From assembly GCA_018175075.1 (NCBI GenBank), contig GCA_018175075.1_4100.1: a stretch of DNA of 64,000 bases. One strand, written 5' to 3'. The translations under genes and the position numbers were made by a program. A model generated the notes under the pieces. That model was not told where the DNA came from. It made no database searches and worked only from the letters and a program-made list of their open reading frames with translations. This document shows positions 21,250-34,373 of the stretch, in pieces. Positions within the stretch are counted from its first letter, which is position 1, and each line of letters opens with the position of its first letter. The DNA is from a phage.

Positions 21250-21320
21250 TGTATCCTCCAAATGTAAATCGTTATTATATTTAGGACAAAAAAATGCCAG
21301 TACAAAATACTGGCTTTATT
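21250..21320 (-). promoter_or_regulatory. late-type cassette: terminator hairpin, TATAAT element, GGAGG RBS
   Basis: GCCAGTA...TACTGGC hairpin then T-rich, TATAAT, RBS. Confidence 0.5.
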
Positions 21321-22526
21321 TTATATACCACGACTGGGTATTTTATATAATTGAAATTTAGTGTAATAATCAGAAACTGTTGTACCTGTCGCTTGTGGGA
21401 TATAGCCACTCAAATACACATCCCCTTGATTATCCATATACACATTTGTACATTCACTTGGACAGAATAACTCGATGCTGCCAACTTTAGGTGCATCAAC
21501 TGGAACTACAAATGTAGTACTTGATGTTGTATTACCGCGACCGAGCCTACCATATGTGTTTATACCACACATATAAAGTGAATTGTTAGTTTTAACCGTA
21601 AGACCACCATATGTTAATGAATTTGATTTCATTATCATATCATCTGATATTGGTAGAGTGGAGATTGTAGATAATACTGTCCCTGATGAAGCGGCTGAAC
21701 CATTACCCAAGTTACCTTCCGATTGAATCCCACTTGCACGAACTGTATATGTATTATTCGTGTTGTGTTTAGATACAACCCATGATGCACTCCCACCAAG
21801 TTCATAATGTATAACAGTATTGTTGGCTAATGCACCCATTTGTGTCCATACTCTAATGTTAGTTTCACCATTACTTATACCAAGTGAACCCCATGTGTTT
21901 TGACCAGTTACCCAAAGTGTTTTATCAATTTTCTGCACAATCACTGCACTTGAACCTGTTTTTACACTATCCACATTCGTATTAATTGAAGTAAATGTTG
22001 ATAATCTTGTGGTTGTGTTATTACCAAAATATCCCTGTGTATTTGCCCCCATTCCATATAGCGTACCATTTTGAAGTAAAACAAAAATACCCTCCCCTAC
22101 AATTTGAATGTCCTTAATTTGCGACAATTGTGTTGCATTGAATACTGATGTAAAATATGAAGTACAATCAGTATAAGTACTGACAGTACTTAATCCTGCA
22201 CCAATAGCTCTACCTACGCCACTGTAATAAAATTTATTATCTTCGGTTTGGATTAAATTAAAAGAACCTTGGGCTGTTCTAAAACGTTTTACATTTTGGT
22301 ATATTAAAGTCCACTCTTTTACTTTCGCATTAGGTACACCATTTCCGAATCCATAGTTTTGTGAACTAGTTCCACCTATACCCATTAAGTCTCCATTTTT
22401 ATATAATAGTAAGAGTGCTGTTGCTGGAATAACTGACGCACTATAACCATTGTAAATAAAGATTTCTTTCACTTCAGGAACTTTCATTTTATTTGCGTAT
22501 TTTATCATCCTTGGAAAAGGTAACAT
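21321..22526 (-). CDS. RCC1-like repeat protein paralog B, 401 aa
   Basis: N-terminal MLPFPRMIKY; RCC1-like GxLGxG repeats (NTWGSLGIS, NTYGRLGRG). Confidence 0.7.
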   Translation of the reverse strand: MLPFPRMIKYANKMKVPEVKEIFIYNGYSASVIPATALLLLYKNGDLMGIGGTSSQNYGFGNGVPNAKVKEWTLIYQNVKRFRTAQGSFNLIQTEDNKFYYSGVGRAIGAGLSTVSTYTDCTSYFTSVFNATQLSQIKDIQIVGEGIFVLLQNGTLYGMGANTQGYFGNNTTTRLSTFTSINTNVDSVKTGSSAVIVQKIDKTLWVTGQNTWGSLGISNGETNIRVWTQMGALANNTVIHYELGGSASWVVSKHNTNNTYTVRASGIQSEGNLGNGSAASSGTVLSTISTLPISDDMIMKSNSLTYGGLTVKTNNSLYMCGINTYGRLGRGNTTSSTTFVVPVDAPKVGSIELFCPSECTNVYMDNQGDVYLSGYIPQATGTTVSDYYTKFQLYKIPSRGI

Positions 22527-22597
22527 AAAATCCTCCTTTATTCATTATACTATATTTAATCAAAAAGAAAAGCCAGTGTTAAGTACTGGCATAAAAT
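22527..22597 (-). promoter_or_regulatory. late-type cassette: terminator hairpin, TATAAT, AGGAGG RBS
   Basis: minus strand GCCAGTACTTAACACTGGC then TTTTCTTTTT, TATAGTATAATGAATAAAGGAGG. Confidence 0.55.
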
Positions 22598-23767
22598 CTA
22601 AGCAGAAGGCATATTCTTCATCTTAATAAATGAAAATTGTGTACCAGTATTTGTGGTTTGATCAGTAAAATATGAATTACTCCCAGCCCAGTACAATTCA
22701 TTATTGACTATACAATATATAACAGAACTCGAACTCTGTGAATACACACGACTTATATTTGATTGTTCTACTCCAGTACTGAACTGAACTACCCCCAACT
22801 GTGAACTTGGTATTACATTAGTTGGTCTACCTAAACCGTTAACACCCGCTCCACCACCACATGTATATACTCCAGTACTATCAGTTGATATATTAACATA
22901 ACCATTTCCGGCATTTTCAAATAGTATTTCACTGGGAACAACACCAAATCCTGTAAGATCTATTTTCCTGAATGTAGTGTAAACAGTAGAACCACCAACA
23001 CCTCTTCCACCATAATCATTAGAACCAGCCATATAGATACTATATCCAGAACTTCCTAAACATAATAACTGTACGTTGTCATATAAAATTTGCATAGATA
23101 TAACGTTATCAGGAATACTCAATACCGTAAAAGTAGTTAAAGAAGAACTTCCAATATTACTACCAACCGATGTTCCACATCTGTAGTACTTACCGCCTTT
23201 TATATAATGGAACGATGAACCGCCTAACTTATGTGCTCCTATTTCACTTACCCCAGTATCTATAAGAATGGGAGATACAACTTTGTTATTAACACCTAAC
23301 TCAGATCTACTGTTCATACCGAACCCATATAAACGACCATCTAACATCAATATTAGTGTACTACCTGACGTACCTGCTGACGTAAATTCTATATTCTTTA
23401 TTTGCGACACGTCAATACCTACAAATAATGAAGTTACTTCAGTCCAGTTAACATATGAACCACTAGCCCCAAAATATCCACCCATGTATAGTCCGGCACA
23501 ATATAACTTATTATCAACCGTCTTTATTAATGTACCGGATACACACGCCCAAAAATCATCAACTTCATAGGGTACATGTACCCAACCACCTAATACATCA
23601 CTATCATTCCCTGTTCCTAATTTGTAGTTCGATCCAGAACCACGCATATACATATTCCCTGTACTATAAAGTAATCCGACATGTAATTGACTACCATCCA
23701 ATTTCTTTATTTCGGGAAGAGTTGGTTTAATATTTCCGTACTTTAACATTCTTCCAAAAGGTAACAT
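22598..23767 (-). CDS. RCC1-like repeat protein paralog C, 390 aa
   Basis: start set at conserved MLPFGRM after GGAGG RBS (track ORF extends upstream). Confidence 0.7.
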   Translation of the reverse strand: MLPFGRMLKYGNIKPTLPEIKKLDGSQLHVGLLYSTGNMYMRGSGSNYKLGTGNDSDVLGGWVHVPYEVDDFWACVSGTLIKTVDNKLYCAGLYMGGYFGASGSYVNWTEVTSLFVGIDVSQIKNIEFTSAGTSGSTLILMLDGRLYGFGMNSRSELGVNNKVVSPILIDTGVSEIGAHKLGGSSFHYIKGGKYYRCGTSVGSNIGSSSLTTFTVLSIPDNVISMQILYDNVQLLCLGSSGYSIYMAGSNDYGGRGVGGSTVYTTFRKIDLTGFGVVPSEILFENAGNGYVNISTDSTGVYTCGGGAGVNGLGRPTNVIPSSQLGVVQFSTGVEQSNISRVYSQSSSSVIYCIVNNELYWAGSNSYFTDQTTNTGTQFSFIKMKNMPSA

Positions 23768-33032: not shown

Positions 33033-33104
33033 ATTTCCCTCCTTTATTCATTATATTATATTTAATCAAAAATAAAAGCCAGTACTTGAGTACTGGCATA
33101 TCAA
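33033..33104 (-). promoter_or_regulatory. late-type cassette: terminator hairpin, TATAAT, GGAGG RBS
   Basis: perfect palindrome GCCAGTACT-TGA-AGTACTGGC plus TATAAT/RBS. Confidence 0.55.
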
Positions 33105-34271
33105 TTACGAAAAACGTGGATCATCAAGAACAAACACGGTACTACTTGGACCACCTTGTGTGGTGACAGCACTAGTACTGTAAAGAAAGTTACCATCTGT
33201 CATATAAGTTCTACGATTCGTACAAATAACTCTTACTTTATTCATATCGATATCAGGATTAGGTAATGGACATGAAGTATACACTGATACATCAGTACTT
33301 GTTCCTATTCCCAGCGTACCTTCATTTGTGGTTGAACCGCTATTCAACCCACTAGCATATATACCACTGCTTGTAATAACAAAAGTGGCGTAGAATGGAG
33401 AACCTTCACCTATATTTAATTTAGTTCCAGGTGGTTGTCTTGCCGCAGCAACCGCACCATATGCTTTCCCACCAGATGTGGCAAGATTACCAAGAGCACC
33501 ATACTGTTGTTGTCCACCATTATACACTGTGTTAGTGCCATCACTGTTAGTGTGGATACCAATAGAATTATAGTTACTGTTGCTATATACTAAAGCGGCA
33601 TTAGAAGTAACTGTATTTCGTGTATATACTTTATATTGTTGGGTAAAATTACCACTAGTGGACGTACCCTGTACAGTTCCAGTGTAGTATATATATCCGT
33701 CTGTACCAATGAATGAGTGCATAACACTACCTGCAAAAATTTTTTCTGGAGTAACACCTGACGGTATTGTTGATTGTACAAATCTACCCACTACATTTGT
33801 TGTTGTATTATTTCCCAATTGACCGGAGTCACCATAACCACTTGACCATATGGTATTGTTCTCAAGAAGAACACTAATTGATAATCTTGATAAAGCTATT
33901 TCTTTAACATCACTTTCTAATGTATCAAAAAATGAAGTACAATTTGTCCAAGTGTTCACTACGCTAGAACTAACACCAATTTGTTTATTATCACCAGAAC
34001 TATAATAATTCCCATCATATGTTTGTATAAGTATAACAGAACCACCAACCCATACTTTATCAACTGAACCAAACGTTCTTGTCCATGTGGTAACTATATC
34101 CCCGCTATTATTACCCAATCCAAAGCAACCACTACTATCTACGCCTCGTACATATAAATCTCCTGAAGTCATCAGAACTGCACAGAATGATTGTGCACCT
34201 TTAACATCTTTAATTGGCTCTGGTTCAGGTGCAACATTTCCATAATCAAACATTCTAACAAAAGGTAACAT
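33105..34271 (-). CDS. RCC1-like repeat protein paralog L, 388 aa
   Basis: start at MLPFVRMFDYGNV; repeats DSGQLGNN, NEGTLGIG; first gene of the cluster. Confidence 0.7.
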   Translation of the reverse strand: MLPFVRMFDYGNVAPEPEPIKDVKGAQSFCAVLMTSGDLYVRGVDSSGCFGLGNNSGDIVTTWTRTFGSVDKVWVGGSVILIQTYDGNYYSSGDNKQIGVSSSVVNTWTNCTSFFDTLESDVKEIALSRLSISVLLENNTIWSSGYGDSGQLGNNTTTNVVGRFVQSTIPSGVTPEKIFAGSVMHSFIGTDGYIYYTGTVQGTSTSGNFTQQYKVYTRNTVTSNAALVYSNSNYNSIGIHTNSDGTNTVYNGGQQQYGALGNLATSGGKAYGAVAAARQPPGTKLNIGEGSPFYATFVITSSGIYASGLNSGSTTNEGTLGIGTSTDVSVYTSCPLPNPDIDMNKVRVICTNRRTYMTDGNFLYSTSAVTTQGGPSSTVFVLDDPRFS

Positions 34272-34373
34272 ATTTCCTCCTTTATTCATTATATCATATT
34301 TACCCCATAAACAAAACCCTTGACAACCTTCCAGTACTGGTGTACTATAGAAGGAATATAAGGAGAACTACAC
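34272..34373. promoter_or_regulatory. divergent promoter region
   Basis: plus strand TTGACA (34320), 17 nt, TACTAT; minus strand TATAAT plus AGGAGG for paralog L. Confidence 0.5.

Follow-up and report, generated by a model that had tools for sequence, protein, structure and literature searches.

A repeated cassette of about 65 bases was found between the paralogous genes of a minus-strand array in a 64,000-nucleotide stretch of phage DNA (contig GCA_018175075.1_4100.1, the window), the source of which is an Asteriusvirus jumbo coliphage of the 121Q/phAPEC6/G17 group. The cassette probably joins a terminator, a variant of the late-type promoter of this group and a Shine-Dalgarno (SD) sequence, a reading that rests on a set of late-box evidence, on the virion location of the gene products and on the strand of the array. 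The broader statement that it consists of a terminator and a promoter of some kind can be made with considerable confidence. The array spans 21025-34271 and holds 12 genes, g1-g12, each of which opens with MLPF(A/G/V)RM.KYGN from a shared 5' start, ATG(T/C)TACC.TTT, that encodes MLPF.

Layout and conservation of the cassette

The full cassette runs from the upstream stop codon through a GCCAGTAC..GTACTGGC hairpin, a T-run, ATTAAATATAGTATAAT and AAGGAGG to ATG. Both halves are present at 7 junctions, before g2, g4, g5, g6, g7, g10 and g11, and the modular order of terminator, −35-less promoter-like element, SD and ATG that a sequence-only reading of this DNA had described is borne out there. 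In place of the eight regions to which that reading ascribed one layout there are these seven and two half-cassettes, g1 having the promoter half alone and g12 the hairpin with a degenerate 3' half. The promoter and ribosome-binding block TATAGTATAATGAATAA(A)GGAGG lies upstream of g1 and of the seven genes with a full cassette, its consensus SD (AAGGAGG) placed 4-6 nt ahead of ATG. A search for the block with up to 3 mismatches returned 7 copies where 0.00 were expected, the g4 copy being absent from it because of a 1-nt deletion alone. The first array gene of G17 and of 121Q is preceded by the same arrangement as g1, and GGGTAAATA is also retained before the first gene of Erwinia phage Hallingskeid and before gp001 of Cronobacter phage GAP32.

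Eight hairpins with a T-run follow stop codons, upstream of g12 and of the seven genes with a full cassette. They begin 4-15 nt past the stop codon and have RNA folding energies (dG) of −8.6 to −16 kcal/mol with z scores of −3.1 to −4.7; each presents a G+C-containing stem-loop and a U-tract shortly past a stop codon, as intrinsic terminators do. The stem GCCAGTACT..AGTACTGGC given by the sequence-only reading occurs literally only once, the others being variants of the form GCCAGTA(C/T)..(G/A/C)(T/A)ACTGGC. Stems are near-invariant and loops variable (28 distinct hairpin sequences among 49 copies), and the stem changes seen across genera are partly compensatory, from GCCAG/CTGGC to GCTAG/CTAGC and GACAG/CTGTC. 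The G17 record has ARNOLD terminators annotated at these sites, and that of Salmonella phage Munch has terminators at matching positions of its paralog array. Rfam searches, permissive on the array and at the gathering threshold on the whole window, returned nothing credible. Within the window this type of hairpin is confined to the array and one further site at 19420.

The palindrome AGTACT, which makes up the hairpin stems and also occurs in the sequences that flank the −35 and −10 boxes of early promoters, is 13-fold over-represented across the whole window (283 sites, e.g. 123, 197 and 569, against 22 ± 5 expected). It is the sole enriched 6-bp palindrome, the next highest reaching 1.75x. 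With 182 sites in coding DNA it is enriched there too, and between genes even more strongly. CAGTACTG occurs 64 times in the window against about 1 expected. AGTACT is likewise enriched 6-15x in the phAPEC6, Munch and Hallingskeid loci; no literature on such an enrichment was found.

Conservation is concentrated on the cassette. Identity among the copies is 78-90% (mean 83%), and the opening 39 nt of the coding sequences (CDS) reach 84%, while identity falls to 55% in the DNA of the CDS bodies and 49% in the last 60 nt of the upstream genes. The paralogous proteins are 25-40% identical in pairs (mean 30%) and are, to judge from these sequences, old. A search with the 74-nt cassette matched 36 Asteriusvirus records and no others, with 3-12 sites in each genome. 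In an alignment of 35 copies from the window, G17, phAPEC6 and 121Q, TAAATATAnTA is invariant (35/35). The element that had been singled out from the sequence, TATAAT, lies 3 nt downstream of TAAATA and does not hold as the conserved box: it is TATAAC in 3 of the 35 copies, is lost in the last-gene type and reads TATATT or GATATT in other genera. The invariant element is instead TAAATA, the core of the T4-type late box of the group.

The N-terminus M[LI]PF.R...YGN also marks paralog arrays or single genes in three further genera, and the paralogs of these cassette-bearing genera are about 25-31% identical to g2. Munch, Hallingskeid and GAP32 (gp001) keep a hairpin (..AGTAC..GTACT..), a T-run and (T/G)TAAATA + N3 + (T/G)ATAWT; the leader and SD differ. 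As TAAATA is kept across all these genera, it is the common denominator of the cassettes. The Munch array (329294-348340) was seen to contain 15 full paralogs with the same N-terminus and one cut at the edge of the locus, and that of Hallingskeid 9. A minority of their junctions have the hairpin and TTAAATA cassette, and the rest are close-packed or overlapping and presumably coupled; in Munch 9 of 15 junctions are of this kind, with gaps of 0-11 nt or 4-nt overlaps.

The probable promoter element and its proposed reader

The absence of a recognisable −35, as stated by the sequence-only reading, was confirmed. All that inspection by eye and a scan turned up 15-19 nt ahead of the two −10-like hexamers was a weak CTGGC(A/T), and a sigma-70 scan flags the g4 cassette alone, weakly (CTGGCA-17-TATAGT, 9/12). 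Early genes of the window carry near-consensus TTGACA/TTGCAA-N17-TATAAT. Late genes of phAPEC6, including those for major capsid, scaffold, sheath and baseplate, have nATAAATA 22-72 nt upstream. The cassette boxes are ATTAAATA before internal genes, GGTAAATA before the first and CCTAAATA before the last gene; they match the canonical TATAAATA at 6 of 8 positions with the core TAAATA intact, and they share with T4-type late promoters the lack of a −35 and an AT-rich stretch downstream of the box. The earlier assignment to a late-type class is probably right, for a box other than TATAAT.

The late box is strongly avoided in the rest of the window. ATAAATA occurs at 2 sites where 44.5 ± 7 are expected, and both (7029-7036 and 8727-8734, plus strand) stand 44 and 73 nt before homologs of gp037c and gp035c, phAPEC6 virion proteins verified by mass spectrometry (MS); these homologs look like late genes set within the early region. 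Among 15 composition-matched hexamers TAAATA is the most depleted in the window, at a ratio of 0.17 with the next lowest at 0.49, and single-mismatch variants of TATAAATA are most depleted at −13 (0.03) and −12 (0.31), the other positions ranging over 0.58-1.29. In a 100 kb late region of phAPEC6, 12 BTAAATA sites were counted at a distance of 15-80 nt ahead of an annotated start on the same strand, where 1.5 were expected (P = 3e-8); the same positional test gave 19 against 0.8 for ATAAATA.

Variant boxes also precede genes unrelated to the array. In phAPEC6, boxes changed at −12 lie before the virion-protein genes gp228c, gp274c and gp280c. The gp228c box, ACTAAATA, is followed by the same sequence as the major capsid promoter, and gp274c has a hairpin, a T-run and GCTAAATA-AAG-TATAAT, a cassette-like layout. 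The box ATTAAATA recurs identically at gp276c, gp250c and gp267c, and GGTAAATA at gp247; gp276c shows the same layout as the cassette. Composites of hairpin, T-run and box were further observed before gp244, gp245, gp228c and gp035c, that of gp244 (GCTTTTCTTTTTGAATAAATAT) being one base away from the cassette. The layout shared with the cassette precedes phAPEC6 virion genes known from MS. A gp55-like late sigma is encoded in the genus outside the window: phAPEC6 gp237c matches phrog_234, 'late sigma transcription factor', at 8e-18, although a Pfam search with this protein gave no match. The earlier idea that a phage-encoded factor is needed is supported. The genus also encodes an RpoD-like sigma. 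A late consensus related to that of T4, in phage Aeh1, has (a/g)C at −13/−12 (PMC2988020) and sets a precedent for boxes that depart from the T4 form there.

Late timing of the array is inferred from this box resemblance, from the virion products of its homologs and from its strand. The array is the sole substantial minus-strand block amid the plus-strand early genes of the window, and in T4 late transcripts can have either polarity, early and middle ones cannot (PMC2988020). Eight RCC1-like proteins were detected by MS in phAPEC6 virions (PMC7247149), and GAP32 gp001 was likewise found in virions (PMC5259590).

We propose that an RNA hairpin, GCCAGUAC-loop-GUACUGGC, with its U-rich tract would end the transcript of the upstream paralog, probably only partly. 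At 9-12 nt past the stem a −35-less promoter would follow, with the TAAATA core of the T4-type late box as its essential element; core RNA polymerase of the host would recognise this promoter with the gp55-like late sigma of the phage bound to it. Transcripts would start about 6-7 nt past the box, within TATAAT, to give a leader of 18-21 nt; the very short leader suggested from the sequence follows solely from taking TATAAT as the box. The consensus SD 4-6 nt ahead of ATG would drive translation, and at junctions that have lost the cassette, with the stop codon of the preceding gene inside the SD (TAGGAGG), the next gene would be translated by coupling. Each virion-associated RCC1-like paralog would in this way form its own late transcription unit. 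As a second role, the conserved block of about 110 nt formed by the cassette and the first 13 codons may supply homology for the gain, loss and reordering of whole genes among related phages.

Several observations weigh against this proposal. The U-tracts are broken up (UUUUCUUUUU, UUUCUUAUUU, AUUCUU), so termination may be weak. The canonical 8-bp box TATAAATA is not present in the cassettes, and A at −12 was never seen in about 45 copies; in T4 the pocket of gp55 takes the flipped −12 adenine (PMC7892883). With a position weight matrix built from 19 canonical late boxes the cassettes score below every training site; since the training set is invariant the matrix is unable to weight mismatch positions and ranks the cassettes like any one-mismatch site, and it was not used as evidence of membership. 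A perfect sigma-70 −10 hexamer (TATAAT, TGATATAAT at g1) is conserved in most copies, which means that sigma-70 of the host could read the cassette itself or assist in this. The authors who described the related phage CBB found no gp33 or gp45 homologs in it (PMC5259590). No paper with a transcriptome or promoter map for Asteriusvirus or the Rak2-like phages was found, and the RNA-seq paper on PA5oct reports only sigma-70-like motifs. A reading of TTTG(T)ATTAA as a T4 MotA box was rejected, as its spacing to the −10 is far too short for the Mot-box architecture. An IMG/VR scan with GTACTGGC-N4-16-TTAAATA was too loose to be informative and gave single chance matches per contig.

The strongest alternative is that host sigma-70 reads TATAAT (or TATAGT) as a −10 without a −35 and that TAAATA is incidental; the array would then be expressed from early on, or once a phage anti-sigma blocks the −35-dependent early promoters. 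In T4, promoters independent of a −35 escape AsiA. TATAAT is perfect in 32 of the 35 copies, the extended −10 is complete at g1, a second TAnnnT hexamer overlaps TATAAT, and the weak CTGGC(A/T) stands 16-18 nt upstream in the hairpin arm, where the scan picked it up at g4. However, all clear early promoters in the window have a near-consensus −35, so that the cassettes would be far weaker if sigma-70 read them. TAAATA is never lost, whereas TATAAT is missing from some copies and from other genera, and neither −10-like hexamer is constant throughout, the upstream one appearing as TACTGT, TACGTT or TACTAG and the TATAAT one as TATATT or GATATT. With gene products that are virion components, this account and the timing it entails appear unlikely to us.

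Still less probable is an array without internal promoters, transcribed from the g1 promoter through leaky hairpins, in which the AT-rich block and SD would act as a translation or standby site, or as an element for mRNA processing or stabilisation, kept uniform by gene conversion. The interrupted U-tracts would suit such read-through, the homogenised synonymous sites of the first 13 codons point to concerted evolution, and the leader and SD part is uniform inside each genus and different between genera. What is conserved across genera, however, is the hairpin and TTAAATA..TATAAT and not the leader; the unit of hairpin, T-run and box also stands before unrelated late genes, and TAAATA is purged elsewhere. 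That the repeats are a mere residue of recent tandem duplication with no function of their own, as the tandem arrangement of the paralogs might suggest, is contradicted already by 83% identity in the cassettes against 55% in CDS DNA and about 30% in protein and by the retention of the cassette in three genera with such distant paralogs, and can be given hardly any weight.

Gene shuffling, coupled junctions and other features of the window

The flanks of the array are 97-98% identical to phAPEC6, 121Q, G17 and others, and the array itself is a mosaic of which the best related genome aligns to only 36%. Ortholog clustering of the array genes of four genomes, with ortholog groups lettered A-S, gave the order A B C D E F G H I J K L for the window, M B C D N O E F G P H for G17 (where the locus ends), O C B D E F Q G H I J L for phAPEC6 and N O C R E F S Q G H I L for 121Q. 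Inside the array the ends of blocks of at least 88% identity all fall between −72 and +57 of a start codon. The stop-proximal part of a cassette travels together with the gene that it follows, the SD-proximal part with the gene that it precedes, and orthologs, such as E, bear different cassette subtypes in different phages. Codons 2-10 are fixed and partly atypical synonymous ones (CCT 11/12, AAG 7/8 and TAC 7/11, against 0.39, 0.26 and 0.22 in gene bodies), which indicates homogenisation at the DNA level. The block ends are consistent with crossovers within the cassette; they do not prove them, since ends in conserved DNA are expected with any whole-gene replacement.

Most of the array paralogs are, by their database matches, RCC1-like beta-propellers. 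Five of the six paralogs submitted matched the Pfam RCC1-like families PF25390/PF00415, g1 and g2 matched the PHROG 'regulator of chromosome condensation', and a PDB sequence search related g2 to the RCC1 propellers of RPGR and HERC. The sixth, g6 (245 aa), had no match in Pfam or in the PDB sequence search and in PHROGs matched phrog_4474, of unknown function; it shares with the family only the N-terminus MLPFGRMVKYGN. As g6 keeps the 12 N-terminal residues without RCC1 repeats, these residues may act as a portable adaptor. More tentatively, and in our estimate unlikely as a whole, TTAAATA-N3-TATAAT could be a promoter class of its own, in which the fixed non-A at −12 sets strength or timing or recruits another phage factor, and the cassette with the 13-codon N-terminal adaptor could be a recombination module that diversifies beta-propellers displayed on the virion. 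If so, virion surface proteins would be exchanged by cassette-swapping within and between jumbo-phage genera, analogous to the exchange of tail-fibre modules.

Of the three overlaps of stop codon and ribosome-binding site proposed from the sequence, two stood exactly as described, the stop and SD overlapping in TAGGAGGGAATATG at g2>g3 and g7>g8; the upstream stop in or next to the downstream SD or start is the arrangement expected for translational coupling. The g8>g9 junction reads TAAGGAGGAATTTATG, and its TAA, inside the g9 SD, ends a remnant in the +1 frame. The 269-aa open reading frame (ORF) of g8 stops 380 nt earlier than this TAA, broken by a 1-nt frame shift near CAAAATTCACGG, and the 380 nt carry, intact, the C-terminal third of an RCC1 paralog. 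The coupled trio that had been put forward accordingly depends on the frameshifted g8. The split is annotated alike in G17, phAPEC6 (gp007/gp008) and 121Q (238/237), and phAPEC6 gp007 has been detected in virions; g8 may be either a conserved pseudogene or a case of programmed +1 frameshifting. The last paralog, g12, is disrupted as well, its N-terminal fragment and the following ORF having an annotated counterpart in the 121Q genes 235 and 234. Positions are collected in Table 1.

Table 1. Window coordinates of the cassettes, junctions and coding sequences of the array
Feature	Position	Strand	Details
Promoter half before g1, no hairpin	34272-34304	-	box GGTAAATA 34297-34304; TGATATAAT (extended −10-like) 34288-34296; SD 34276-34282
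Full cassette before g2	33033-33097	-	hairpin 33078-33097 (dG −13.2), T-run, box ATTAAATA 33059-33066, TATAAT, SD 33038-33044
Full cassette before g4	30643-30705	-	hairpin 30687-30705 (dG −12.9), box 30667-30674, TATAAT 30658-30663, SD 30647-30653
Full cassette before g5	29402-29466	-	hairpin 29448-29466 (dG −11.5), box 29428-29435, TATAAT 29419-29424, SD 29408-29414
Full cassette before g6	28138-28203	-	hairpin 28185-28203 (dG −16.0), box 28164-28171, TATAAT 28155-28160, SD 28143-28149
Full cassette before g7	27330-27392	-	hairpin 27374-27392 (dG −13.9), box 27355-27362, TATAAT 27346-27351, SD 27334-27340
Full cassette before g10	23768-23831	-	hairpin 23813-23831 (dG −12.4), box 23793-23800, TATAAT 23784-23789, SD 23772-23778
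Full cassette before g11	22527-22590	-	hairpin 22572-22590 (weakest stem, dG −8.6), box 22553-22560, TATAAT 22544-22549, SD 22532-22538
Degenerate cassette before g12	21250-21314	-	hairpin 21296-21314 (dG −11.4), box CCTAAATA 21278-21285, diverged leader TTTGGAGGATACA
Coupled junction g2>g3	31822-31832	-	TAGGAGGGAAT(ATG), stop overlapping SD
Coupled junction g7>g8	26146-26156	-	TAGGAGGGAAT(ATG)
380-nt remnant, +1 frame	24956-25335	-	downstream of g8 stop
g1 CDS	33105-34271	-	
g2 CDS	31830-33032	-	
g3 CDS	30712-31821	-	
g4 CDS	29473-30642	-	
g5 CDS	28211-29401	-	
g6 CDS	27400-28137	-	
g7 CDS	26154-27329	-	
g8 CDS	25336-26145	-	
g9 CDS	23846-24955	-	
g10 CDS	22598-23767	-	
g11 CDS	21321-22526	-	
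g12 CDS	21025-21249	-	74-aa N-terminal fragment
298-aa RCC1-like ORF	20097-20993	-	continuation of disrupted last paralog g12

Two other regions of the window were noted. About 2 kb at 38766-40885 are without convincing ORFs. The motif (T)ATGATTCAGTACTGA is present there in at least 8 copies, together with a pair of exact 40-nt direct repeats (40562 and 40615) and, at 39816-39943, an iteron-like run of 8-nt units nGAyGGCT; by these repeats the region is a candidate origin or regulator-binding region. On the plus strand, 40700-59700 is occupied by an array of tiny genes, each with a near-consensus sigma-70 promoter AAAAAGTACTTGCA-N17-TATAATGTTTTACATC followed by the 5'-UTR (untranslated region) hairpin GGGGAGAAAnGGTTCTCCCC, a second and distinct repeated expression cassette.

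Comparison with known systems

The GenBank records of G17 and Munch already mark the hairpins as terminators, and the multiplicity of RCC1-like genes has been mentioned in print (PMC7247149, PMC5259590). No description of the cassette, its promoter or a role in shuffling was found in the literature. If the cassette is a terminator with a late-type promoter and SD, late promoters of Rak2/121Q-like phages should be annotated as nnTAAATA and not as TATAAATA alone, which would add many late starts, and the array would show an insulated late transcription unit for each member of a large virion-protein family. The idea behind the PeSL elements discussed below, that regulatory cassettes serve as recombination seams, would then hold beyond the early ORFan regions of T4-like phages and cover late structural paralogs in jumbo phages of at least three genera, and the cassette would offer a compact, portable terminator-promoter-RBS (ribosome-binding site) unit for engineering these phages. 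None of these consequences would overturn current views.

With T4-type late promoters (TATAAATA; gp55, gp33, gp45) the cassette shares a box in the −10 region only, the lack of a −35, AT-rich DNA downstream, a short leader, the use of either polarity and a gp55-like sigma encoded by the genus (PMC2988020 for the T4 system); it differs at −13/−12, which are AT, GG or CC in the cassettes and TA in T4. The phAPEC6 units at gp244, gp245, gp228c, gp274c, gp276c and gp035c resemble it in the order of hairpin, T-run and box, with the box 3-13 nt past the stem and a TATAAT-like sequence often 3 nt past the box. These units are single-copy with unrelated stems, whereas the array cassette is one sequence family, repeated 7-12 times in each genome. 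The junctions g2>g3 and g7>g8, like those of Munch, are similar to coupled operons with stop/SD or ATGA overlaps and show nothing unusual.

Classical PeSL-type units were observed on the plus strand of the window upstream of the genes at 4283, 8268, 10132, 11216 and 16131. They comprise a hairpin GGTTGACTTCGGTCAGCC that contains a TTGACT −35, a T-run and a TATAAT-like −10 (TATGAT before 11216, TATTAT before 16131); in the unit at 10097 the −10 is replaced by TGTAAATA.

The PeSL (promoter-early stem-loop) and PmSL elements of T4-like phages (Arbiol et al. 2010, PMC2839356; Comeau et al. 2014, PMC4122927) are likewise built from a stem-loop terminator, a promoter immediately behind it and, at the 3' end, an SD and start codon. 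They are repeated between neighbouring non-core genes of a hyperplastic region and lie at the borders where closely related phages differ by an insertion, a deletion or a replacement, as the cassettes of the array do. PeSL have sigma-70 −35 (TTGACA-like) and −10 boxes spaced by about 17 nt, of which GGTTGACTTCGGTCAGCCTTTTTTGTTATAAT is a true example in the window, and PmSL have a Mot box; the cassettes contain neither arrangement, their conserved element being the late-box core. The genes flanked by PeSL and PmSL are small ORFans, in contrast to the paralogs of about 1.2 kb for virion-associated proteins described here, and the conserved block of the cassette reaches 39 nt into the CDS. Mini-circles are known for PeSL, with which the array is compared on its sequence only. 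In promoter type and flanked genes the two systems differ; in other respects the seams of the array match, as far as their sequences go, what would be a late-promoter counterpart of the T4-type PeSL and PmSL.

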